Shown here piece after piece: positions 5,229-64,000 of a stretch of DNA of 64,000 nucleotides. Position 1 is the stretch's first letter. Each line of letters starts with the position of its first letter. Under the pieces are notes generated by a model that searched no databases, was not told the DNA's origin, and saw only the letters and a list, made by a program, of their open reading frames with translations. This DNA is from Clostridia bacterium (GTDB lineage Bacteria; Bacillota; Clostridia; TANB77; CAG-508), in contig JAAWKA010000001.1 of NCBI GenBank assembly GCA_022797145.1, positions 125,745-189,744 on the forward strand. The letters run 5' to 3'. The position numbers were made by a program, and so were the translations under genes.

Positions 5229-5303
5229 TGGCTGGGGTACTAAGATTCGAACTTAGGAATGGTGGAATCAGAATCCACTGCCTTACCACTTGGCGATACC
5301 CCA
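5229..5303 (-). tRNA. tRNA-Gln (anticodon CTG)
   Basis: Minus strand reads TGGGGTATCGCCAAGTGGTAAGGCAGTGGATTCTGATTCCACCATTCCTAAGTTCGAATCTTAGTACCCCAGCCA. It forms a clean cloverleaf: 7-bp acceptor stem, anticodon stem GTGGA/TCCAC with loop TTCTGAT, T-arm CTAAG-TTCGAAT-CTTAG, and an encoded CCA. Confidence 0.9.
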
Positions 5304-6633: not shown

Positions 6634-6813
6634 TATTTATTCCTCCTTTTTCTTAAATAACCGTTTATAAATATGTATTCTTTTATAGATACTTATGAAA
6701 TTCAAAAAATATATTATATCAAATCTTAATATATAGTTTTTAAATTCATTCTATTTTATATTATTCACATTCTTTTACAAACTTCAGTCTAATTTTTATC
6801 ATTATACTATAAA

Positions 6814-7506
6814 TTACTCTTGTCTTGGATCTATTTTCTTTACTGCTTCATCAAATCTTCCATATTTTCCTGAAGCTTTTTCTATTGCTTCTGTTGCTTC
6901 TATTCCCTTTTTTATGTTTTCCATCATTTTTCCTAAGTTTACATATTTATAACCAATAATTTGATTATCTTTATCTAATCCTATTTCTACTATATAACCC
7001 TCTGCAAGTTCTAAATATCTTGGTCCTTTTGATAATGTACTATATATTGTACCAACTTGACTTCTGTGTCCTTTTCCTAAATCTTCAAGACCTGCTCCTA
7101 TAGGAAGTCCTCCCTCTGAAAATGCAGATTGTGTTCTTCCATATACTATTTGTAAAAATAGTTCTCTCATTGCTGTATTAATTGCATCACAAACTAGGTC
7201 TGTATTTAAGGCTTCTAATATTGTCTTTCCTACTAATATTTCTCCTGCCATTGCTGCTGAATGTGTCATCCCTGAACATCCAATTGTTTCAACTAATGCT
7301 TCTTGTATAATCCCTTCTTTTACATTTAAAGTTAGTTTACATGCTCCTTGTTGTGGGGCACACCAACCAATACCATGTGTTAATCCTGATATATCTTTAA
7401 TTTCTTTTGATTTTACCCATTTGCCTTCTTCTGGAATTGGTGCTGGTCCATGGTCTACTCCTTTTGCAACTGGGCACATTTCTTCTACTTCTTTTGAATA
7501 AATCAT
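6814..7506 (-). CDS. NifU/IscU-like iron-sulfur cluster scaffold-related protein
   Basis: Cys-containing NifU-N-like segment (GWCAPQQGACKLTL...ETIGCSGMTHSAAMAGE). Its usual partner is GGGtGRT. Confidence 0.6.
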   Translation of the reverse strand: MIYSKEVEEMCPVAKGVDHGPAPIPEEGKWVKSKEIKDISGLTHGIGWCAPQQGACKLTLNVKEGIIQEALVETIGCSGMTHSAAMAGEILVGKTILEALNTDLVCDAINTAMRELFLQIVYGRTQSAFSEGGLPIGAGLEDLGKGHRSQVGTIYSTLSKGPRYLELAEGYIVEIGLDKDNQIIGYKYVNLGKMMENIKKGIEATEAIEKASGKYGRFDEAVKKIDPRQE

Positions 7507-7574
7507 TTTAGTTTGCTCCTTTCAATATTAGATTTATATTTTTTTAACTTTAATAACATATTTGGAACTTTAAA

Positions 7575-8246
7575 TTATTCATTTATTTGTTTATAACTTA
7601 AAATTTGACTTTTGATTTGCTCTTGTTTTATTTCTTCTTCTGCTTCTTTTTGTATTTGTCGTTCTTCATGATTATATTCAATTATATTGCTATTTATCTC
7701 TTTTTTATATATTCCTTCTGTATATGTATATAAATTTTTATTTTTTTCTTTGTATCCTTCTAAGTATTTAATTATCATTTGCTTTTCTTTTCTATTATAA
7801 TTACTTAAAGGAATCTTTAAATATTTATGTCTCCATATTAAGTGTCTATCATAACTTGTATATTCTGTAGTAGTTAAATCTTCATAATCATATTCTACAT
7901 TAAATTTATAATTTTTTACTGATATTGTTATACTAGTAAATGGCTGTTCTTTTATTTTTATTAATTCATTTCTTAATTCTTTTATTTTTGCATATAACTT
8001 ATCTGCAAGTTTTAAATACGCTTCTTCATCTAAATTAAATTTATTAGGTATTTCATATACATTGATTGGTTTTTTTTGTAGAATACTTTTGGGATAGTAA
8101 TAAAAAAACATTTCTCCTGCATTTGTTTTACTATGTTCTATTATAGATGCATACAAATAGATACTATCCCATTTTTCTGGAATCATATAAAATAACTGTT
8201 TTTGTATTTGTGAATATACATTTCTTATATTAGATGTTGTTAGCAT
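7575..8246 (-). CDS. DUF600 / YezG-like (TIGR01741-type) putative immunity protein with a C-terminal extension
   Basis: The pattern ...IPEKWDSIYLYASI...GEMFFYYYP... resembles the YezG/DUF600 family. GGAGG lies 5 nt before ATG 8246. An upstream in-frame ATG at 8258 overlaps the gpmI stop (TAATG). Confidence 0.5.
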   Translation of the reverse strand: MLTTSNIRNVYSQIQKQLFYMIPEKWDSIYLYASIIEHSKTNAGEMFFYYYPKSILQKKPINVYEIPNKFNLDEEAYLKLADKLYAKIKELRNELIKIKEQPFTSITISVKNYKFNVEYDYEDLTTTEYTSYDRHLIWRHKYLKIPLSNYNRKEKQMIIKYLEGYKEKNKNLYTYTEGIYKKEINSNIIEYNHEERQIQKEAEEEIKQEQIKSQILSYKQINE

Positions 8247-8257
8247 TTTTGCCTCCA

Positions 8258-9790
8258 TTATTTTCTAACAATAATACTTTCACCTGTCATTTCTTCTGGT
8301 TTTTCTAATCCCATTATGTCTAGCATAGTTGGGGCAAGGTCTGCAAGTTTTCCTTGTTTCAAATTTATATTATCCCTTCCAATTAATACTAATGGTACTG
8401 GGTTTGTTGTATGTGCTGTATGAGGTTCTCCTGTTTTATAGTCTATCATTTGTTCTGCATTTCCATGATCTGCTGTTATTAGTATTACTCCCTCTTTTTT
8501 TATAACCTCATTTACTACTTTTCCAACACATTCATCTATTGCTTCTAAAGCTTTAATAGCAGCTTCTAAATTTCCTGTATGTCCTACCATATCAGGATTT
8601 GCATAGTTTAAGATAATGCAATCATATTTATTTGATGATATAGCTTCTAATACTTTATCTGTTACTTCATATGCACTCATCTCTGGTTTTAAATCATAAG
8701 TTTCTACTTTGGGTGAAGGTACTAGTATTCTGTCTTCTCCTTCATATTGTTTTTCTTCTCCTCCATTAAAGAAAAATGTAACATGGGCATATTTTTCAGT
8801 TTCTGCAATACGAAGTTGTGTATATCCTTGTTTACTTATATATTCTCCAAACGTATTTTTTAAACTTGTTGGTTTAAATGCAATATTCACATTTGGCATT
8901 GTTTCATCATATGATGTCATACAAACAAAATATAAATTTATTTTATTTGTGTTAAATTCATCAAAGTTATTATCTACTAATGTTCTTGTTATTTCTCTTG
9001 CTCTATCTGGTCTAAAATTAAAGAATATAACAGAATCATTATTTTTTATTGTAGCTATTGGGGTATCTCCATTACAAATTACTGTTGGTTCTACAAATTC
9101 ATCAAATACCTCTTTTTGATAAGAACTTTCAATAGCAGAAGTGGCTGTTAAAGCTTTTTGTCCTTCTCCTTCTACTAATGCTCTATATGCTTTTTCAACT
9201 CTTTCCCATCTTTTGTCTCTGTCCATTGCATAAAATCTGCCCATTATTGTAGCAATTTTTCCAATTTCTTTTTCCTTCATTTTTTCTTCTAGTTTTGTAA
9301 TATATGTCTCTGCTGATGCTGGTGGAGTATCTCTTCCATCTAAAAAACAATGTACATATACATTTTCAATTCCTTTTCTTTTTGCAAGTTCTAATAATGC
9401 ATATAAATGACGAATATGGCTATGAACACCTCCGTCAGACAATAAGCCCATTATGTGTAAATCAGATTTATTTTTATTACAATTTTCTATTGCTTCATTA
9501 AACTCTGGTATACTAAAAAAATCTCCACTTTCAATTGATTTTGTAATTCTTGTTAATTCTTGGTATACTATTCTTCCTGCTCCAATATTTGTGTGCCCTA
9601 CTTCCGAATTCCCCATTTGTCCTTCTGGTAATCCAACATCAAGTCCACTTGTATATATATTAGTCATAGGGTACATTTTCATAAATTTATCTAAATTAGG
9701 CGTACTTGCCATTTTTACTGCATTTGCCTTATCATTTGAATTTTCTCCAAATCCATCTAGTATCATTAACATAGTTAATTTATTTTTCAT
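8258..9790 (-). CDS. gpmI: 2,3-bisphosphoglycerate-independent phosphoglycerate mutase
   Basis: 510 aa with iPGM-type motifs ([28 protein letters not shown]). Confidence 0.95.
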
Positions 9791-50540: not shown

Positions 50541-50627
50541 TTTATAAGTTTTTTGTTTTTATTATATTAGCATATATAATAAAAATATTCAAGTTTTTCT
50601 ACTCATTTTTAATTAAATTATTATATA

Positions 50628-50830
50628 ATCCCCACCTTAGCCGTTAGTATCAAGAAATTTTACGGACCTGTACTCATACAGGTGGGTGCTTACCTAGATA
50701 CTAATGGGTTTCTTACATAAATGCAAGCATACACGCCATATCTAGAGCTGGGCTCCCTTTCCGAAACTTGTAGGTTCTAAAATCTCTTGCTATCGAACTA
50801 CGCAGGGAATTTAGTGGTTTGTTCTTTTAT
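50628..50830 (-). ncRNA. ssrS: Candidate 6S RNA
   Basis: A roughly 200-nt GC-enriched block in an AT-rich spacer. The 5' AAUUCCCUGCGUAGUUCGAUAGCAAGAGAUUUU pairs imperfectly with the 3' AAAAUUUCUUGAUACUAACGGCUAAGGUGGGGAUU. There is a terminal stem CUAGAUAUGG...CCAUUAGUAUCUAG and a small hairpin CCUGUA-UGAG-UACAGG on the 3' side of a central bubble. TTGAAA-18-TAATAT promoter lies just upstream. Confidence 0.55.
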
Positions 50831-56776: not shown

Positions 56777-58645
56777 TTATACTACTCCACACACCATATC
56801 AACTTCTATTGTTACCCCTATTTCATGATTTTCTATTCTTTTAACCTTATTTTTGCCTTTTCCCTCAAAACTAATAAAATCCTTAAATACACTAAATTTA
56901 ACTATTGTATCAATTTTTTTAGATATAGCACCGAGCAACACTCGACGTGGCTTACATATAGGCTGTAGATAGTTTTTGCTAACCTCGTATGATGACTGTT
57001 GATTTTTGTCTTCTTTTTCATCCTCTTTGCATTTAATTTCATTGCCACTTTTTAAGATAAATGTTATGACTCTCGGATTAGTTTTCCCTTTACTGTCCTT
57101 TTCTCCTATTATAACTTTTTCTATCATTAATTCAAAAACATCTTTGTCAAATTCTGGCATAATTTCATTGTCTTTAAACAAAGTTTTAAACTTGTTTAAT
57201 CCTTGATTTAAACTAATTGAATCCTCTAATTCAATTTGTAAATGCTCTTGTTCTTTTTCTATTTGATTGATTTTGTTTTGTAGTTTTGCTTTCTTTTCTT
57301 GCAATGTTTCTAATGTTATTGTTCCATTTAAGTTTAAATCAATTAGTTTGTCTATCTTTTCTTTTAAAATTTGCTTTTCTTCCCCTAGTCTTTTAATAGA
57401 ACTTTCGTTACTTTCTTCTTGTATAATTTCTTCCATTTCATTTAAGAATGTTTGGATTAGTTATAAGTTATTATTACATAATAACTTATAACTTTCGGTA
57501 AATACTTCTTCTATTATGTTTTCTTTCATAGCTTTACAGTGTGGACAATTTTCCTTTCCATGTTTTACAAATTCCATACAATGCCAAACTGTAATGCTGT
57601 TTTTCGTTCCAGAATGCCAGTTTCTTCTTGTAAGTAAGCTACCACAGAAACCACAATATAATCTACTACTAAAAGGATATTTTCTACTAAAGTTGCCTTT
57701 TCTTCTTCCAGAACCTCGAACTCCTGCTCGCTTTTGCAAAATTTCTTGTGCTTGATTAAACATTCTTTCAGAGATGATTGGCTCATGATGTTCTTGTATA
57801 TAATATTGATTTTCTTCTCCCATATTGACTACTCTTCTATGTGAGATTGGATCTGTTGTATATGTTTTTCCTTGCAAGACATCTCCTTTGTATTCTTCGT
57901 TTTTCAAAATACCTCTTATGGTTGATTCGTGCCATTTCTTTTTACCTGTTGGAGTTTTGTATTTCATATTTGTTAGTTCTTTTGCTATTGTTGTACAGCC
58001 TACTCCTTGGCAGTATCTTTCAAAGATATATCTTACTATTTCTGCTTCTTCGTAATTAATTGAGATTTCTTTTGTGTCTTTATGATATACATATCCTAAA
58101 CATCCATTATATCCAATTAGTTCTCCTCTTTTCTGTTTCATTTGTAAACCCAATTTTACATGTGAAGAAATATTTTCGCTTTCTTGTTGTGCCATTGCAC
58201 TTAATACTGTTAGCATGATTTCTCCTGATATTTCTAAAGTATTTATTCTTTCTTCTTCAAAGTAAATAGCAATTCCTTTTTCTTTTAACCCTCTTACATA
58301 TTTTAAGGTATCAACTGTGTTCCTTCCAAATCTTGATATTGATTTTGTAATTATCATATCAAATTTGTTATTTGTAGCATCTTGCATCATTTTCATAAAG
58401 CCATCTCTTTTATAGTCTAGTGTTCCTGTTATTCCTTTATCCGCATAAATACCAACATATTTCCAATCACTATTTGCTTTTATCTTTTCTTCATAATACT
58501 TTAGTTGGAAATTATAACTGTTTATTTGTTCTTCTTTTTCTGTACTTACTCTTGCATAGGTACATACTCTTAAGTTTCCTTTTATTTCTTCTCCTGTTGT
58601 TCTATTAATTCGACCTTTTTTCTTCTCTATAACTTGTACTTTCAA
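56777..58645 (-). pseudogene. Large serine recombinase interrupted by one in-frame TAA (394 aa + stop + 227 aa in the same frame)
   Basis: The N-terminal resolvase domain has the catalytic YARVST. It is followed by a recombinase domain, a zinc ribbon (CGFCG...CMEF...CPHC), a coiled coil and a DUF4368-like tail. 58645-57436 = 1209 nt, so both ORFs share one frame and are separated by the TAA at 57461-57463. Confidence 0.8.
57459..57493. repeat. Perfect 16-bp-arm palindrome inside the recombinase gene, containing the premature stop
   Basis: AGTTATAAGTTATTAT-TAC-ATAATAACTTATAACT (plus strand). Confidence 0.9.
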
Positions 58646-58712
58646 AATTAACCTTCCTTTCTCAAGTTTAGAGAATCTTTATGTGCTTATTATACATCAA
58701 AAGTTAAATTTT

Positions 58713-58898
58713 TCAAATACCTATGTGAGTTAAATTGTATTCTTGTAGGATATTTTGCTTTAATTCTAAATATCTCTTTTCTTTAATTAGTCCTGCTTTA
58801 AATGTTTTGTTTAATATTGCTATTTTTATACTGCAATTAAATATATTTTTGTTTAACTTGATGTTTTTCGTATTATCAAAATTGACTTCATATAACAT
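58713..58898 (-). CDS. Small hypothetical protein (61 aa) immediately upstream of the recombinase
   Basis: Strong SD GGAGGAG 7 nt upstream of the ATG. Basic and Lys-rich. No family recognised. Confidence 0.55.
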   Translation of the reverse strand: MLYEVNFDNTKNIKLNKNIFNCSIKIAILNKTFKAGLIKEKRYLELKQNILQEYNLTHIGI

Positions 58899-58943
58899 AA
58901 AAATTCTCCTCCTTGAATAATTTAGATTTCAAAAAAGGCAACA

Positions 58944-58974
58944 GAAAAAGCCAGTCGGCTAGCTTCGACTGACT
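58944..58974 (-). terminator. Strong GC-rich intrinsic terminator about 45 nt upstream of the small-ORF start
   Basis: Minus strand reads AGUCAGUCG-AAGCUAGC-CGACUGGCU (9 bp including one G-U), followed by UUUUUCUGUUGCCUUUUUU. Confidence 0.75.
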
Positions 58975-59086
58975 TGATTGTTTTACATTTTTTGATAATA
59001 CGATTATATTATGCTATTCTATAAAGTTCAATTCCCGTTTTTTTCCCTTTTTTCTATTTAAATTTATAAAATATTGATTTCTAGGT

Positions 59087-59336
59087 AAGTACACTAAGTG
59101 TACTTGCATAAAAAACTTTGAAAATTTATTTTTATAATCCTTATTTGTGCGTTCACTTAGTGTACTTTTTGCTAATTTTTTTGAAATTTTAAGTTCACTT
59201 GGTGTACTTTATTTTAAATTTCAATCAAATTCAAGTACACTTGGTGAACTAATCTATGTATTTTTATAAAATTTAGTACATTTAGTGAACTTTAGCACTA
59301 TAATAGGCATTTTTTAACCATTCACTCGGTGAATTT
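59087..59336. repeat. Phased array of six 19-bp palindromic repeats (iteron/operator-like)
   Basis: Copies: AAGTACACTAAGTGTACTT (59087), GCGTTCACTTAGTGTACTT (59149), AAGTTCACTTGGTGTACTT (59191), AAGTACACTTGGTGAACTA (59233), TAGTACATTTAGTGAACTT (59274), CCATTCACTCGGTGAATTT (59318). Centre-to-centre spacing is 62, 42, 42, 41 and 44 bp. Confidence 0.85.
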
Positions 59337-59366
59337 TCACATCGAATTTGCTTAAAATTTTTGTTC

Positions 59367-59553
59367 TTTTATTAACTCTTGAAGGCTTGTCCTTCAATGT
59401 GTATAGGCGATGTGTGAACACTCGCTTTCCTGCCCTCAATTTTAATTGAGGTATTTCTGTTTTTATAGTATTTATGTATACTTAATTAGATATACTTATT
59501 TTTACAATCTTCATTTAAGATTTTATTAAAATTATGTGACAGCATATTCATTT
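59367..59553. repeat. Direct repeat, copy 2 (homologue of 54062-54268)
   Basis: TTTTATTAACTCTTGAAGGCTTGTCCTTCAATGTGTATAGGCGATGTGTGAACACTCGCTTTCCTGCCCTCAATTTTAATTGAGG...TTATGTGACAGCATATTCATTT. Confidence 0.75.
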
Positions 59554-59580
59554 CTAAATTCCTATATATTTTTGAATCTA

Positions 59581-62500
59581 TTAAATAGATCTTTTTAATT
59601 TTAAAACTTCTTTTATTGGTACATTTTTCATATCTGATGGTATTATAGGATCATCATCTTTCAAAATTGCTGCTGACTCTAAATCATATTTACTGATTTC
59701 ACAAGCTTGCATAATATTAACTTTTTTAAGACATATCTCATATTCTAACAAAGGAACTATTTGTTGGTTAGATATTACCATTGGTAAAAGAGTAATTTTA
59801 GGATTATTTTCATTACGGATTATCTCTTCCAAAATTCTTATATTTTTATCGTCAGTACAATTCATCTGATGAAAACGTGTAGCACTATTAATAATAATAT
59901 TTTCAGAATTGTCTTTTGGAATTTTTACTTTTCCTGTAATCATAACCCTATAGTCATAAATATTTGTTTTACTAATTCCTTTTATAAATGAAACTACAAT
60001 ATTCCCATCTATATCTTCTTTAGTAGCATTATCTATTAGGTCTTGAAAAACCTTTTTAGCTCCTTCCTCATTTTCAAATAAAAAACCTATTTTAATAAAC
60101 TCTTTATTTATTACATCTCCTAAATACACGACTCCTTTCCATTTAGCAACATCCCAATGATTACATTTAATCATTCCGGAAGAATAAATGTTTCTATGTG
60201 AAATATTTTCAAATGGATTATTTTCTGGAACTCCATATATAATATCTTTTTTCTCTGCAAAGGGTTCAATCGTTTCTTCCTTTATCTTATATTTTTTTAC
60301 ATTTGTATACCATTCTTTATCTCTGCTAATACTACAATTAGGTATGTCTATATCTTCCTCTTTACCAAATATTTTATTAAGATTATATAAACTATTTGTA
60401 TGATTTAAACTTCTTTCAAAACTCTTATCATCTTCAAATATTTCTTTAAAAGTTTTTTCATAATCTTCATATATAAAATTAACCGCCAATATATTCGTTA
60501 ATAACTTAAATAATATATCCGTTATTAAGTTATGATTTTCTACAGAAATATCATACATTTCAAATGAATCTAAAGTTATTGTATAAGTGTCTATTCCATC
60601 AAATGAATAATTAATATCAAACTTTCCAGTATTTTTTTGTTGTAATAGTATAACAATATCTCCACGCATATAAGTATGATGAGTATGAATTGTAGCAAAG
60701 GTATTTTCTAATAATGCTATTAAAAATTCAACAAATCTATGCATTAATTTTGAAGATATAAAGACTATCTTTATTTTATTACCACACAAAAATGAATAAA
60801 TTGTCCTTTCGCTTCCATTATTATAAACTGGTAATGGAAGCTTTTGATTTAGTGAATCTTTATAAAATTCTTCTATTAATTTATCTACTTTTCCTTTATC
60901 ACCATTACATTCTTCTAATAATTGATTATCATACTCACCTATTGCATACTTAGCCATAACTTCTGAAGTTACTAATCCATTTTTATGACACATCTCAATT
61001 ATTTTTGGCAAAAGATGAAAATCTGACATTTTTGTATTCAATATTTCTGAAGAAATTAATGCATCTCGTTGTAAAAAATAGTCATTTTCTTCATCAAAGT
61101 TTATATTTTCATTACTTTCATATAAAATACTTAATAAAATATGTTTAATAGAAAACCATTCTATTACTTCCTCTATATTGCCATTACTAATTTCTAAATC
61201 TATAATTCTATTTATTACTTTAAGTGAAAATGAATCTAAATATCTATCCTTTAAATAAATATCTATAAACATTGTAATAGCTGCTATATAATAGTTTTTA
61301 GCAACATAATGTAATCCTATAGATTCAAAATTGCCACCAATATTAACATAGGCTTCTACTAACTTGCCATCTGTTTCCTCTTTATACAGGAATGTTAAAC
61401 ATTTACCCAAAATATTAATTGCTTCATAATATTTTTTATTAGATACCAACATTTTAGATTTTTTTAAGTACATTTCCGCTCTTTGTATTTCACAATTTCT
61501 ATTTGATAATTTGTCTGTTACTAATTCATACAGCTGATTATACTTATCATTATTGCAAAATATTGGTAACATATTTTCAACCATTTTTGATAAAGTAAGG
61601 AAATCGTATTCTTTAAATCTTGTTGCTTCTTCAACAATAGCTATAAGATTATCAAATTGTTTATCTATATTCTCTTCTAATAAAATATTTATAATACACA
61701 TTTGAGTTTCTGCCTTTAATTGCGTAACTCTACTTTGAGATTTTTCTTTTTCATTTAAAAGATTTAATAATATATTTGTTTCATCTTTCACTTCATTTTT
61801 ATTTCTATTTTTTCTCGTATATAGTAATGTCCATAATGTAGCTAATTTTAATATTTCTTCTATTTTTTTATCTTTGATAACTTCATTTTGATATTCTATG
61901 TAATACTTTTCAAAATTAGTATCATCGTTTAACCACCAATTGTAGTACCATGCTAAATCATACAAAATATTTCTTTTATCTACAATATTATTTTTTTCTT
62001 TTGCCAATCTTAATGCACGTTCAAACTTTCCTACAACTGTTGCTTCATCCTCTTCTAAATCTCTACTCAAAATAGCTGACTCTATAGAGAGATCTATAAC
62101 ATCTTGATTTACTATTTTTTTTAAACAATAATCCTGCAATTTCTTTTCTATTTCTTCTACTTGCCTATGTTTCTTTAAATCGTTTGGACCAATTTGATTT
62201 TCTTTTAGTGGTTGAGTAATATTTATTATTTTTAGCAAATCCAAATTTTTAACATTGAGTGCTTTGTCTAATATCCATGTTTTATCTAAAACTCTTATTT
62301 CTACTCCTGTTTCTTTGCTCTTGTTATCTTGATATTCCAATTTTTTATCATTTTTAATTGCTTGATTCGTTATAAAGAAAATCTTTGTATAACCCCTGTT
62401 TGTTTCTATAATCTTTTTTATATCTCCATCACATTTTGATTTCCAAGCTTTTTTTAAACTAACTGCAAATGCCCATCTATCATTTTTTTCATTTAAACCA

Positions 62501-62781
62501 TACCACCAATAATTTTGAATATCTCTTGATACTGGATAATTTTCTGTATCAATTTTCCCATCTCCTCCTCCAGCTGGTCCAGTTTCTTCTATTAAATTAG
62601 GGCAAATCTCTCTTTTTAACAAATTTCTTATAAAATCTTCAAAATCAAAATGTTTATTTTGTTCTGCCAACTTTGATAAATGAAAATCTAGTAATTCTCT
62701 TGGACATTCAATCTTATCTATAATCTTTGAATCTGAAAATTGATTAGGATGTAACTTCCTTAATAAATCTTTAGGTTCCAT
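59581..62781 (-). CDS. 1066-aa protein: N-terminal Mrr/PD-(D/E)xK-like nuclease motif, central TPR-like helical repeats, unassigned C-terminal domain
   Basis: Pattern FEDFIRNLL...EE(65-66)TGPAGGGDGKID(71-78)...AFAVSLK(110). Helical repeats run roughly over residues 230-620. No Walker A/B. AAGGAGAG SD. Confidence 0.6.
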   Translation of the reverse strand: MEPKDLLRKLHPNQFSDSKIIDKIECPRELLDFHLSKLAEQNKHFDFEDFIRNLLKREICPNLIEETGPAGGGDGKIDTENYPVSRDIQNYWWYGLNEKNDRWAFAVSLKKAWKSKCDGDIKKIIETNRGYTKIFFITNQAIKNDKKLEYQDNKSKETGVEIRVLDKTWILDKALNVKNLDLLKIINITQPLKENQIGPNDLKKHRQVEEIEKKLQDYCLKKIVNQDVIDLSIESAILSRDLEEDEATVVGKFERALRLAKEKNNIVDKRNILYDLAWYYNWWLNDDTNFEKYYIEYQNEVIKDKKIEEILKLATLWTLLYTRKNRNKNEVKDETNILLNLLNEKEKSQSRVTQLKAETQMCIINILLEENIDKQFDNLIAIVEEATRFKEYDFLTLSKMVENMLPIFCNNDKYNQLYELVTDKLSNRNCEIQRAEMYLKKSKMLVSNKKYYEAINILGKCLTFLYKEETDGKLVEAYVNIGGNFESIGLHYVAKNYYIAAITMFIDIYLKDRYLDSFSLKVINRIIDLEISNGNIEEVIEWFSIKHILLSILYESNENINFDEENDYFLQRDALISSEILNTKMSDFHLLPKIIEMCHKNGLVTSEVMAKYAIGEYDNQLLEECNGDKGKVDKLIEEFYKDSLNQKLPLPVYNNGSERTIYSFLCGNKIKIVFISSKLMHRFVEFLIALLENTFATIHTHHTYMRGDIVILLQQKNTGKFDINYSFDGIDTYTITLDSFEMYDISVENHNLITDILFKLLTNILAVNFIYEDYEKTFKEIFEDDKSFERSLNHTNSLYNLNKIFGKEEDIDIPNCSISRDKEWYTNVKKYKIKEETIEPFAEKKDIIYGVPENNPFENISHRNIYSSGMIKCNHWDVAKWKGVVYLGDVINKEFIKIGFLFENEEGAKKVFQDLIDNATKEDIDGNIVVSFIKGISKTNIYDYRVMITGKVKIPKDNSENIIINSATRFHQMNCTDDKNIRILEEIIRNENNPKITLLPMVISNQQIVPLLEYEICLKKVNIMQACEISKYDLESAAILKDDDPIIPSDMKNVPIKEVLKLKRSI

Positions 62782-63815: not shown

Positions 63816-64000
63816 TACGAATTTCTCCTTTCTTTTGCGAACATTTGTATTGTATCATGTTTCTTAATAACATTCAATGTTTTTAGCAAAATTTGTAAAA
63901 TTTTATTGATACTACAGATAAATTATATTATAATAATTTTACATTAATTGTTGCACACTTATAAAGTGTGGAGTTTGTTTCATCTTTTATAAAGATGCTT

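Follow-up and report, generated by a model that had tools for sequence, protein, structure and literature searches.

The six palindromes that lie upstream of a serine recombinase gene in the window (the whole stretch of DNA analysed here, 64,000 nucleotides) form an evolutionarily conserved array that, judged from its sequence, looks like a docking array for a DNA-binding protein. The reading that we favour, tentatively and at somewhat less than an even chance, is that the array provides operator or architectural sites for a dimeric binder within the gated control region of an excision switch. The preliminary description of this DNA had offered two options: a cooperative operator, or a centromere-like or iteron-type site, for a dimeric protein that might be the basic 61-aa product encoded downstream (p61), and a leader in which terminator read-through gates the large serine recombinase (LSR). 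The cooperative operator became our best reading on account of helical phasing, cores conserved above spacers and the W position of the half-sites, but p61 as its binder and the centromere or iteron variant were not supported. The leader stood as architecture, its order being kept in two clades, but the gated product would primarily be p61, as the LSR has its own promoter-like element.

The six palindromes and the distances of 62, 42, 42, 41 and 44 bp given for their centres were confirmed (centres at 59096, 59158, 59200, 59242, 59283 and 59327). Of the copies of AAGTWCACYNARTGWACTT that make up the array, five are strong and one is degenerate. The five strong copies, slots 2 to 6 below, were found by a pattern search allowing up to three mismatches, against a chance expectation of 0.08 sites per window, and their number was matched by 0 of 100 shuffles. 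The sixth copy departs from the 19-mer at 5 positions, its 13-bp core being palindromic nevertheless, and this degenerate copy occupies the slot with the strongest conservation in related loci, its consensus AAATTCACCgAATGAAC being found in 64 of 66 A-type loci. Outside the array, the 64-kb window held 0 sites with one mismatch or fewer in the 15-bp core, and the sole other matches carried two. The slots, which span about 65 to 300 bp upstream of the −35 hexamer of the downstream promoter, are as follows.

59318 to 59336, no strand: slot 1 palindromic site, degenerate, core TTCACTCGGTGAA, abutting the end of the conserved block
59274 to 59292, no strand: slot 2 palindromic site TAGTACATTTAGTGAACTT, from the pattern search
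59233 to 59251, no strand: slot 3 palindromic site AAGTACACTTGGTGAACTA, from the pattern search
59191 to 59209, no strand: slot 4 palindromic site AAGTTCACTTGGTGTACTT, from the pattern search
59149 to 59167, no strand: slot 5 palindromic site GCGTTCACTTAGTGTACTT, from the pattern search
59087 to 59105, no strand: slot 6 palindromic site AAGTACACTAAGTGTACTT, promoter-proximal, its centre about 65 bp upstream of the −35 hexamer

A search of other genomes showed that the array recurs and is conserved together with p61 and LSR genes, which is the opposite of the outcome that would have spoken against the preliminary description, namely an array not conserved with these genes. A two-site pattern was found in 109 stretches in genome contigs, nearly all of them uncultured Clostridium or Clostridia MAGs, with carrier genomes often holding two to three array stretches each; the family is abundant in uncultured gut Clostridia of human, mouse and rabbit. 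The same pattern had 0 matches in 2.9 million viral contigs, and blastn of the region 58650–59600 against phage and plasmid collections gave no match. Across the family, arrays contain 2–8 sites, with spacing peaks at 41–43, 31–33 and 60–62 bp, and these spacings are helically phased (n = 359; for 10.5 bp per turn, the circular resultant is 0.66 and the mean phase 0.016 turn), which bears out family-wide the earlier proposal that the sites fall on one face of the DNA.

We observed that in 115 of 120 loci the array adjoins the same non-coding block of about 100–180 nt, in fixed orientation, and that block and array are usually followed by a promoter, a terminator, a 58–61-aa gene (p61) and the LSR. 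Block and array precede p61 and LSR both in clade A (at least 90% identity) and in clade B, with the same palindrome, while identity between the two clades is about 65% for the LSR and 33–41% for p61 (36–41% in full-length alignments). The between-clade conservation of block and array exceeds that of the proteins, which could stem from recombination among co-resident elements rather than from selection. No such array was found in a more distant LSR clade (58% identity). The block lies in the window as follows.

59337 to 59451, minus strand: conserved non-coding block, which always precedes the array; homology reaches about 59510 in some loci

Many columns of the block are at least 90% identical across clades. 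It contains a hairpin CCTCAATTAAAATTGAGG (59434–59451), GGCAGGAAAGCG, a small GCGA...TCGC hairpin and a 19-bp dyad TTGAAGGACAAGCCTTCAA (59379–59397), and the half-site of the array is found at its left edge in many loci as the direct repeats GTGAAC-N4-GTGAAC. A 41-aa basic ORF within the block was rejected as a hidden gene; its reading frame ends after 5 codons in B and C types, and a start codon is often missing. Rfam searches of the region at gathering and E-value thresholds returned no family match, only chance matches at the level of miRNAs. Several short sequences may resemble known motifs: AAGGACAAGC in the block loop may be SpoIIID-like, AGTAC...GTACT may be FapR-like, there may be a likeness to a DnaA box or parS, and CACACTTTATAAGTGTG in the left-end region may be MOBV-oriT-like.

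A block conserved more strongly than coding genes and rich in hairpins, as oriT and sso elements are, raises the question of whether the array instead serves in cis to maintain or transfer the circle formed on excision (as a centromere-like site, as iterons or an origin, as an oriT accessory, or for terminase pac docking via a helper). A hitch-hiking signal would be sensible for islands that have no transfer genes of their own, and a dyad repeated about every 42 bp resembles F sopC, as the half-site TTCAC resembles ParB box A and parS half-sites. We consider this reading unlikely. When all ORFs from 112 non-redundant loci were clustered, just two families recurred inside the element, the LSR in 73 loci and p61 in 60, and no ParA/ParB, Rep, relaxase or terminase gene did so, which removes the partner that the centromere or iteron variant of the preliminary description needed. 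The two-site pattern is also absent from the viral contigs, the region has no phage or plasmid match, and the array is attached to the block in nearly every locus, with no helper element seen to carry the same array.

The pattern of substitutions within the sites bears on what kind of molecule they serve. The spacers had been called merely AT-rich, which is so within one array but not between related loci, where spacers align; mean pairwise identity between related loci is 0.93 for cores and 0.76 for spacers. At the W position, the arms are complementary in only 40% of unique sites (TA 100, AA 96, TT 83, AT 19), and this non-complementarity favours protein half-sites over hairpins. The array thus has what is expected of a generic protein-bound operator: half-site conservation independent of pairing, helical phasing and cores constrained more than spacers.

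The array could alternatively work as single-stranded nucleic acid, either as RNA hairpins (in a cargo 3′ UTR, or in a divergent ncRNA from a symmetric −10 region) or as ssDNA, in a REP/BIME- or attC-like manner. Six of the seven stem positions are paired in 89–99% of unique sites if plus-strand G.U pairs are allowed, and the asymmetry favours the plus strand (87% vs 82% of cells paired). Dyad deviations are likewise strand-biased, with 153 G.U-compatible changes on the window plus strand vs 41 on the minus strand, and the site centre is C-N-A in at least 8 slots vs T-N-G in 1; such strand-biased deviations are not predicted by a purely double-stranded protein-site model. A plus-strand promoter-like site (58982–59010) also points into the array, and a terminator-like site on the same strand lies at 59434–59451. 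Against this, the arms are non-complementary at the middle stem position in 60% of sites, which is less pairing than W would give by chance, the stems are short and AT-rich, and the asymmetry disfavours the sense strand, in which the cargo 3′ UTR would lie. The −35 element of the plus-strand site is not conserved in clade B, and we rejected the site as a divergent promoter driving an array RNA. Together with the lack of an Rfam match and of REP-like dispersal in the 64-kb window, these observations leave the single-stranded reading quite doubtful.

Between the array and the recombinase, the minus strand carries the following features.

59032 to 59047, minus strand: GGGAA direct repeat, two copies 11 bp apart (GGGAAAAAAACGGGAA), adjoining the −35 hexamer
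59003 to 59031, minus strand: sigma-70-type promoter TTGAAC-17-TATAAT, 10/12 consensus matches, reading towards p61
58990 to 59003, minus strand: IR-L TCGTATTATCAAAA, 5′ arm of a long-range helix, 14/14 complementary
58948 to 58975, minus strand: intrinsic terminator hairpin, 10 bp, with a U tract down to about 58925
58906 to 58934, minus strand: Shine-Dalgarno (SD) sequence GGAGGAG and the U-rich tail pairing with it (RBS masking; RNAalifold)
58713 to 58898, minus strand: p61, conserved 61-aa gene, candidate recombinase partner or directionality factor; contains IR-R
58689 to 58716, minus strand: promoter-like TTGAAA-16-TATAAT in the p61-LSR spacer, 11/12 matches
56777 to 58645, minus strand: LSR, with Pfam Resolvase, Recombinase and Zn_ribbon_recom

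The preliminary description had seen no room for a promoter ahead of p61; this is correct for the interval between terminator and ATG, but TTGAAC-17-TATAAT lies between array and terminator. Both hexamers are conserved in clade A, and clade B has TTGATT-17-TATAAT despite differing surroundings. The −35 hexamer lies within ATTGAACTT, which agrees with the right half-site AGTGAACTT at 8/9 positions. No full site overlaps the promoter, from which we concluded that simple steric repression is not the mode of action. The adjoining GGGAA-N6-GGGAA is conserved in the A and B clades and could be an UP element or an activator site.

The terminator described ahead of the p61 ORF was found again, as a hairpin of 10 pairs, 5 of them G-C, running from 58975 to 58948 on the minus strand and followed by TTTTTCTGTTGCCTTTTTT. 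It folds at −15.1 kcal/mol (z = −3.9) and ends 49 nt ahead of the ATG at 58898; given the A-rich tract on its upstream side, it may be bidirectional. Clade B has a different hairpin at this position, with compensatory changes. In one locus of the family, L019, the terminator is naturally deleted. We applied RNAalifold to 36 A-type and 25 B-type leaders, and it recovered the terminator, the pairing of the U tract with the SD sequence and the long-range helix in both clades, whose sequences differ; the logic of U-tract to SD pairing is common to both. The clade A helix pairs columns 1–13 with columns 130–142, and pair 2-141 is CG in 20 leaders, UG in 6, UA in 4, GC in 2, CA in 3 and GG in 1. In clade A this pair shows double changes, as do pairs 27-52 and 31-48 in the leaders of clade B. 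The partner arm of IR-L, IR-R, lies within p61 (58868–58881, codons 6–10), and IR-L begins directly 3′ of the −10 box, so that the full arm is present only in transcripts that start upstream. The region as predicted therefore has the architecture of an attenuator or fold-back leader, with promoter, terminator hairpin and U tract, RBS and compensatory changes.

The protein behind this leader is conserved and short. We found 184 homologues of p61, nearly all of exactly 61 aa, and a sister family of 538 members, some of which match Pfam SHOCT_2 or SHOCT. The window's own p61 had no Pfam match even at E = 10, while clade-B homologues scored 24.1–29.4 bits on SHOCT_2 (PF20612; cut-off 24) and 20–24.5 on SHOCT (PF09851; cut-off 27). 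SHOCT has been described as a probable oligomerisation module (PMC3581485). The AF2 model of p61 is a two-helix hairpin (helices 17–34 and 40–53, pLDDT 78.7) without a significant match among PDB folds (best E = 2), and p61 had no PADLOC or Pfam toxin match. Taken with this model, the SHOCT matches and net acidic character of clade B p61, which nonetheless stands behind the same palindrome, led us to reject p61 as an RHH or HTH binder, and leave unsupported the earlier suggestion that the basic 61-aa product might bind the array. The model and the profile matches suggest a SHOCT-like helical hairpin for which DNA binding is unlikely, and recombinase partner is the better candidate role, a role that we infer from position, conservation and tight gating.

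Repeats, terminator and small ORF follow one another here in an order superficially identical to that of a Type III toxin-antitoxin locus, in which the repeats would be an antitoxin RNA, the terminator would limit read-through and the ORF would be the toxin, and genuine AbiQ toxins are present as cargo in sister loci. The anatomy differs, however: the promoter lies between repeats and terminator and not upstream of the repeats, the conserved part of each 42-bp unit is only 15–19 bp, and p61 models as a SHOCT-like hairpin and not as an endoribonuclease of the ToxN/AbiQ fold. We rejected this reading on these grounds and regard it as highly improbable.

The window LSR is split by an in-frame TAA at 57461–57463 into ORFs of 394 aa and 219 aa, whereas the LSR of a related locus (L017) is an intact 622-aa ORF. 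TTGAAA-16-TATAAT in the p61-LSR spacer, which is conserved in A-type loci and has an analogue in B type (TTTACT...TATAAA), is likely to be the recombinase's own promoter. Homology between several loci breaks off after GAGCCATGTGGA, which places the att crossover, as a likely position, near 56950 within the LSR 3′ end; an att core TTATTTATAG at the left junction was not supported by these breakpoints, and on its left side the island runs on past position 64000, the end of the window. The islands are small, LSR-borne and tandem, in uncultured gut Clostridia. Their cargo upstream of the control region varies and consists mostly of anti-phage genes, with PDC-S05/RhuM, PDC-S22, AbiQ, AbiEi/AbiEii and AbiLi among the defence-related products; that of the window includes a gene for a large unannotated 1066-aa protein.

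The position of the crossover bears on a further reading, in which the array, perhaps with the block, is an architectural accessory site that builds a synaptic complex or topological filter controlling LSR direction or choice of partner. In favour of it, a phased, same-face array of about 250 bp occupies a res-like position immediately ahead of a serine recombinase module, both clades keep array and block together with the LSR, and tandem islands need partner discrimination. The breakpoints, however, place the crossover about 2.1–2.4 kb away, no GTWCAC half-sites surround it except for AGTGAAC in two loci, and the LSR has the standard Resolvase, Recombinase and Zn-ribbon domains with no extra HTH. 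LSR integrases are not known to need accessory DNA sites, which also counts against this reading, and we consider it unlikely.

Variation in the cargo suggested yet another role for the palindromes, as a recombination hot spot or platform for cassette exchange of the kind seen in integrons or pdif modules. At least three types of cassette lie within or beside arrays: in L001, an 82-aa gene and an SDR gene stand precisely in the place of slot 5, with junctions at the end of slot 4 and the start of slot 6, and bring their own site; an AbiQ cassette in L049, L081 and L106 lies between 3–5 sites and 2 sites; and a cassette encoding 119-aa and 308-aa products follows the last site in L058, L089 and L096. 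The junctions differ, however: in L058 the insertion falls after the last site but ahead of the promoter, and another, of 166 nt, interrupts the terminator U tract. The contrast between L001 and L058 left a uniform cassette crossover at the palindromes unsupported. Most arrays are intact, no second recombinase recurs, and the pattern could just as well come from exchange, homologous or illegitimate, among co-resident arrays, all of which makes an exchange platform improbable.

Under the operator reading that we favour, the six palindromes would be putative sites (half-site GTWCAC, 15–19-bp dyad) of a dimeric sequence-specific binder, lined up along a single face of bendable AT-rich DNA about 250 bp long. 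The control region, in the order block, array, GGGAA repeats, promoter, fold-back arm, terminator and masked RBS, would sit between the variable cargo and the recombination module of p61 followed by LSR. As far as its architecture can be read from the DNA, transcription of the cargo genes would run towards the recombination module; a strong p61 promoter would feed a leader with three OFF devices, namely the intrinsic terminator, the pairing of the U tract with the SD sequence and a long-range helix like that of IS10 fold-back inhibition; and the LSR would be expressed from its own promoter, which makes p61 the tightly gated product. A protein complex assembled cooperatively on the array, at centres between about 100 and about 330 bp ahead of the predicted start of transcription, would then set the firing of the p61 promoter and may also be a roadblock or insulator against cargo read-through. 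p61 would act on the LSR as a directionality or partner factor, and the array would thereby determine the timing of island excision.

As for the binder, neither p61 nor the LSR is a likely one, and the ORF clustering of the 112 loci revealed no HTH or RHH gene conserved in the element. Most likely the binder is encoded by the host, perhaps as an Lrp/AsnC-like or Xre-like dimer, or is some other factor that acts in trans. A more speculative extension, which we think has a small chance of being correct, is that block and array act as the sensor of a new kind of excision switch, an infection- or stress-dependent host or phage protein loading the palindromes and triggering or freeing the gated p61 promoter so that p61 flips the LSR to excision, or that the array is a shared cassette-swap platform of co-resident islands; if the sensor is real, defence cassettes would be mobilised on demand. 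LSRs are important genome-engineering tools and movers of resistance and defence cassettes, and the way in which native elements switch them is known only from a few phages and from SCC. A compact conserved control region of about 700 bp is described here in which several layers are stacked (a phased operator-like array, a near-consensus promoter, a leader terminator, RBS masking and an IS10-style fold-back helix), and the 58–61-aa SHOCT-like protein is a candidate new type of LSR partner; a literature search for SHOCT together with serine recombinases returned nothing. The islands are also a guide to new defence genes, holding known and candidate anti-phage systems and large unannotated cargo proteins such as that of the 1066-aa gene, and knowing the binder of the array would tie island mobility to a host or phage signal.

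We compared the region with known systems. A full-text literature search with a few spellings of the motif GTWCAC-N3-GTGWAC (GTTCACNNNGTGAAC and variants) returned nothing. F-plasmid sopC is likewise built of tandem units, each about 43 bp long and containing an inverted repeat, and P1 box A and parS have a TTCAC-type half-site, but in sopC the whole 43-bp unit is conserved and here only the core. Chromosomal parS is a contiguous 16-bp site, whereas the half-sites here are split by a 3-bp centre, and no ParA or ParB genes were found in the 112 non-redundant loci or by Pfam among the window neighbours, so that neither a cognate gene nor a full-length unit or 16-bp parS marks a centromere. Iteron-type origins, with direct repeats beside a Rep gene and an AT-rich DUE, differ as well, the sites here being inverted repeats with no conserved Rep gene. 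REP/BIME elements occur in many dispersed intergenic copies, often together with a RAYT transposase, unlike the block-attached arrays; integrons have one structured attC per cassette and a tyrosine integrase (IntI), as against one array per island, a serine enzyme and non-uniform junctions here; and the ToxIN/AbiQ type of Type III system is set apart by promoter position, core-only repeats and the p61 fold.

Accessory sequences at cer and psi serve Xer, and res subsites II and III serve resolvases. The array resembles Tn3 or gamma-delta res and Sin resH in having several dyads directly upstream of a serine recombinase and a possible regulatory and architectural role. It differs in its six sites with a 42-bp period, as against three subsites within 114 bp in res, in an inferred crossover about 2 kb away in the LSR 3′ end and not in a subsite of the array, and in an LSR without the C-terminal HTH of resolvases.

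SCC/SCCmec-like cassettes are tandem islands mobilised by an LSR (Ccr) and enriched in anti-phage defences (PMC11470126). The islands described here are likewise small chromosomal cassettes moved by an LSR, tandem at one hot spot and with variable, defence-enriched cargo. They differ in having a single LSR with a SHOCT-like mini-protein instead of CcrAB, and this LSR belongs to a different clade, its nearest solved relative being the C. difficile conjugative-transposon recombinase 3g13 and phage LSRs being at most 46% identical to it. SCC is not known to have a conserved block-array control region of this sort.

Fold-back and leader attenuators in IS10 and IS50 protect mobile-element genes from outside transcription, fold-back inhibition in IS10 having reportedly been described by Davis, Simons and Kleckner in 1985. 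The leader shares with these elements an arm that is complementary to the translation-initiation region, lies just ahead of and across the element's own transcription start and is combined with a terminator, and a full inhibitory helix that is possible only in read-through transcripts. Here, however, the helix guards a 61-aa gene upstream of a serine recombinase and not a transposase, and it encloses a complete terminator and a second RBS-masking pairing.

Phased multi-site operators that wrap DNA round an oligomeric regulator include those of Lrp/AsnC type at pap or ilvIH and those of phage CI-type switches. These share with the array dyads of 15–19 bp with a short W-rich centre, a cooperative same-face geometry, and 3–8 sites at integral helical turns in 150–300 bp of AT-rich DNA upstream of a promoter; their commonest spacing is three turns, whereas here it is four (41–43 bp), and the array has neither a linked regulator gene nor core promoter overlap. 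The module downstream can be compared with SPbeta SprA-SprB and other pairs of an LSR and a recombination directionality factor (RDF). No resemblance of p61 to SprB or other known RDFs was seen in sequence or fold. SprA is a detectable relative (E = 4e-18), and both systems would have an LSR expressed from its own promoter and a small, separately controlled partner that decides excision.

The preliminary description of this region had reported six regularly spaced palindromes on one face of the DNA, upstream of the genes for a 61-aa protein (p61) and a large serine recombinase (LSR). The genes lie in the following order:

RhuM-family gene, minus strand
59581-62781, minus strand, gene for a 1066-aa protein
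Intergenic region, with the palindrome array at 59087-59336
p61, minus strand, 61-aa gene
LSR, minus strand, gene encoding Resolvase, Recombinase and Zn-ribbon domains
219-aa ORF, minus strand
PHP gene, minus strand
NUDIX gene, minus strand

Using a pattern search and a reading of 58500-59700, we recovered five sites within three mismatches of the consensus (59087, 59149, 59191, 59233, and 59274; chance expectation, 0.08 per window) and a sixth, weaker copy with the palindromic core TTCACTCGGTGAA at 59321-59333. Centre-to-centre distances were 62, 42, 42, 41, and 44 bp, as originally described, and a 15-bp core model allowing at most one mismatch found no further site elsewhere in the 64-kb window. 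Among species-representative genomes, a two-site DNA pattern matched 109 stretches, often two or three per genome, nearly all in MAGs of uncultured Clostridium/Clostridia from the guts of humans, mice and rabbits. Across 120 loci we counted 562 sites (2–8 per array), with spacings that peaked at 41–43 bp (234 cases), 31–33 bp, 39–40 bp, and 60–62 bp. Expressed as angles on a 10.5-bp helix, these spacings gave a resultant of 0.66 (mean phase 0.016 turn, n = 359), indicating that the same-face arrangement is a family property and not peculiar to the window copy. Other contigs encoding p61 homologues had the same order of array, promoter, terminator, p61 and, 68 nt downstream, LSR; the genes upstream of the array varied, one set encoding a NACHT protein and another KilA-N, CHAT, and SDR proteins. 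The array thus travels with p61 and the LSR, and it is real, conserved and functionally constrained. A less likely alternative is that it serves as a centromere, oriT or pac site; the two-site pattern had no match among 2.9 million viral contigs. The window, of about 26% G+C, is chromosomal, as shown by its 6S RNA (50625-50811, 83 bits) and tRNA-Gln (5229-5303).

When the other loci were mapped onto the window, their coverage was sharply bounded, being zero over the cargo, 107–115 of 120 loci over 59200-59440, about 60 over p61 and the LSR gene start, 21–27 at the LSR 3′ end, and near zero past about 56700. The most widely shared part comprised the array and an adjoining non-coding block (59337 to about 59510), found in 115 of 120 loci in constant relative orientation, with a degenerate first array site abutting the block end. 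Measured from this end, site centres in canonical arrays of type A, to which the window copy belongs, fall at +3, +47, +88, +131, +173, and +233, followed by the promoter (about +297), terminator (about +364) and p61 (about +430). In a sister clade, B, whose LSR is about 65% identical and whose 58-aa p61 homologue is only 33–41% identical, the block is retained and so is the palindrome, at different spacings (+3, +98, +141, +173, +212, +245, and +287). Upstream of a more distant LSR clade (58% identity; locus L076) we found no GTWCAC array; in its place a direct repeat, TTTTCAAaCGCTGTTATA, occurs twice at a distance of about 87 bp (L076 1-130), which may represent another operator, recognised by another regulator. 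A 41-aa ORF in the block was rejected as coding, as it is stopped in B and C types. Within the block, a 19-bp dyad, TTGAAGGACAAGCCTTCAA (59379-59397), is perfectly conserved; its loop, AAGGACAAGC, matches the SpoIIID consensus, a possible link to sporulation-controlled excision.

Among 300 unique sites, six of seven arm positions were near-invariant, and in 14 canonical arrays identity was 0.93 in the cores versus 0.76 in the spacers. At the W position, the two arms were complementary in no more than 40% of unique sites (T/A 100, A/A 96, T/T 83, A/T 19), as expected of two independent GTWCAC half-sites and worse than a stem would tolerate. The half-site also occurred as a direct repeat, GTGAAC-N4-GTGAAC, at the left block edge in many loci. 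Single-strand hairpins are a less likely alternative. G.U-compatible departures from dyad symmetry numbered 153 on the plus strand versus 41 on the minus, and centres of the form C-N-A were far commoner than T-N-G in several independent slots, a strand bias for which a plain duplex-binding model gives no account. Judged by these sequence patterns, the array appears to be an operator-like docking site for a putative protein, not a set of hairpins. A cassette-exchange platform is another less likely reading; cassettes lie in or beside arrays in at least three independent cases, but the cassette junctions are not uniform. In L058, L089, and L096, a cassette encoding 119-aa and 308-aa proteins lies between array and promoter. 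In L049 (727-1855; also L081 and L106), an AbiQ (type III toxin) cassette separates a 3–5-site array from two further sites 19 bp apart, and the recombination module is absent from the 7 kb of downstream sequence.

Only p61 and the LSR recurred inside the element when ORFs were compared across loci. p61 is a real gene, with 184 homologues of 80–97% identity, almost all exactly 61 aa long. The window protein had no Pfam match; clade-B homologues, which align with those of clade A end to end, scored 24–29 bits against SHOCT_2 (cut-off 24) and just below the cut-off against SHOCT, a probable oligomerisation module (PMC3581485). An AlphaFold2 model from the joint A/B alignment gave a two-helix hairpin (residues 17–34 and 40–53, pLDDT above 90 in the core) preceded by a disordered N-terminus, instead of the RHH or HTH fold considered earlier. 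Foldseek returned nothing significant for this model; its hits were generic helical hairpins, among them the coiled coil of the Listeria LSR. We therefore rejected the earlier suggestion that p61 binds the array: it is a predicted SHOCT-like hairpin, and the clade-B proteins are net acidic by sequence count behind the same palindrome. That the array is accessory architecture for recombination is a further, less likely reading; we found neither an extra DNA-binding domain in the LSR nor a half-site in the conserved stretch flanking the crossover inferred for it. With p61 unlikely and the LSR lacking these features, the binder is most likely a putative dimer, host-encoded or otherwise trans-acting. 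From its position, conservation and extreme gating, we propose p61 as a candidate partner or directionality factor that would serve the LSR.

A strong minus-strand terminator had been described so close before p61 that an obvious promoter would not fit between the two. The terminator was confirmed by a terminator scan (58975..58948, 10 pairs plus a T tract) and by folding (-15.1 kcal/mol, z = -3.9), and terminator gating is supported as architecture. A promoter is nevertheless present further upstream: a near-consensus TTGAAC-17-TATAAT (59031..59003) lies between array and terminator, with two GGGAA repeats, spaced 11 bp, in front of it. Clade B has TTGATT-17-TATAAT and the same GGGAA-N6-GGGAA in otherwise different surroundings. 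RNAalifold, run independently on 36 A-type and 25 B-type leaders, recovered three elements in each: the terminator hairpin and U tract, with differing stems and compensatory changes in clade B; predicted base pairs between the U-rich tail and the Shine-Dalgarno sequence; and a long-range helix of 12–13 bp, whose 5′ arm starts directly after the -10 box and whose 3′ arm covers p61 codons 6–10 in clade A and the start codon in clade B. In clade A, the outer variable pair changes along with the third, synonymous position of the Thr10 codon (CG 20, UG 6, UA 4, GC 2, 4 mismatches). In L019 (4935-5003), a clade-B leader variant, the whole terminator is naturally deleted and both long-range arms are kept, and in L058 (5267-5432; also L089 and L096) a 166-nt insertion falls precisely within the U tract of the terminator.

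A perfect 14-bp inverted repeat in the window (58990-59003/58868-58881) encloses the terminator, RBS and start codon. In IS10 fold-back inhibition, the full inhibitory arm is carried only by transcripts arriving from upstream, and the long-range helix of the p61 leader follows the same logic. By this analogy the repeat looks like an IS10-style device: its 5′ arm straddles the predicted start site, and only transcripts from upstream would carry the full arm. Action at the DNA level, as an inversion switch, is a possible alternative for the same repeat. A second strong promoter-like element, TTGAAA-16-TATAAT (58716..58689, minus strand), lies in the p61–LSR spacer, conserved in clade A and with an analogue in clade B, which implies that the leader primarily controls p61 and need not control the recombinase, whose transcription may be independent of p61. 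The terminator thus reads as one of several layers in an OFF leader that controls a SHOCT-like mini-gene beside the recombinase. Operator array and terminator leader, initially offered as alternatives, prove to be two layers of a single control region.

An in-frame TAA (57461-57463, minus strand) splits a single LSR gene into the 394-aa and 219-aa ORFs. The gene is intact (622 aa) in L017; the window copy is probably inactive, or dependent on read-through. Conservation of the LSR 3′ ends extends to ...GAGCCATGTGGA, past which the sequences split into a small number of related arms; this suggests that the att crossover likely lies near 56950, inside the gene, where integration would alter the enzyme's C-terminus. 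Orphan C-terminal LSR fragments (last ~55 aa) lie left of the cargo in many loci. In L007, L013, L043, L066, L068, L094, and L118, conservation ends at GAGCCA(T/C)GTGGA (window about 56940-56960). One island lineage (L007-L010, about 6725-8400) has an IS91-family element (Y2_Tnp, Zn_Tnp_IS91) inserted in the LSR gene, and in L001-L006 the gene is cut after about 69 codons, with a tyrosine-integrase gene and two more genes about 500 bp beyond.

The units are arranged in tandem as LSR, cargo, block-array, p61, and LSR. The main cargo of the window island, the 1066-aa protein adjoining the RhuM/PDC-S05 gene, had no Pfam or PADLOC match and is a candidate uncharacterised defence protein. Sister-locus cargo matched the PADLOC models PDC-S05 (RhuM), PDC-S22 (KilA-N), PDC-S66/CHAT, AbiQ, AbiEi/AbiEii, and AbiLi. 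The left island boundary falls beyond the window; a left-end segment with a promoter (63820-64000) is common to 12–13 other loci. Ahead of the cargo it contains a promoter-like TTGAAT-17-TACAAT, and it has two 17-bp palindromes, CATCTTTATAAAAGATG and CACACTTTATAAGTGTG. The second resembles the array sites, though its centre is longer, and also MOBV-type oriT hairpins.

SCC organisation is not known to include a control region of the block-array kind. The LSR defence-island family described here is previously undescribed, and its regulation is a variation on known kinds. In form (6 + 3 + 6, W-rich centre, phased, AT-rich bendable spacers, 100–330 bp upstream of the promoter), its sites come closest to Lrp/AsnC-type or phage-repressor-type arrays, a resemblance and not membership. 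The SprB-SprA pair, in which SprA is a detectable relative, offers a model for p61 and its recombinase. As a whole, the family resembles the tandem defence cassettes of SCC-like type that Ccr LSRs mobilise (PMC11470126), but it differs from them in LSR clade.
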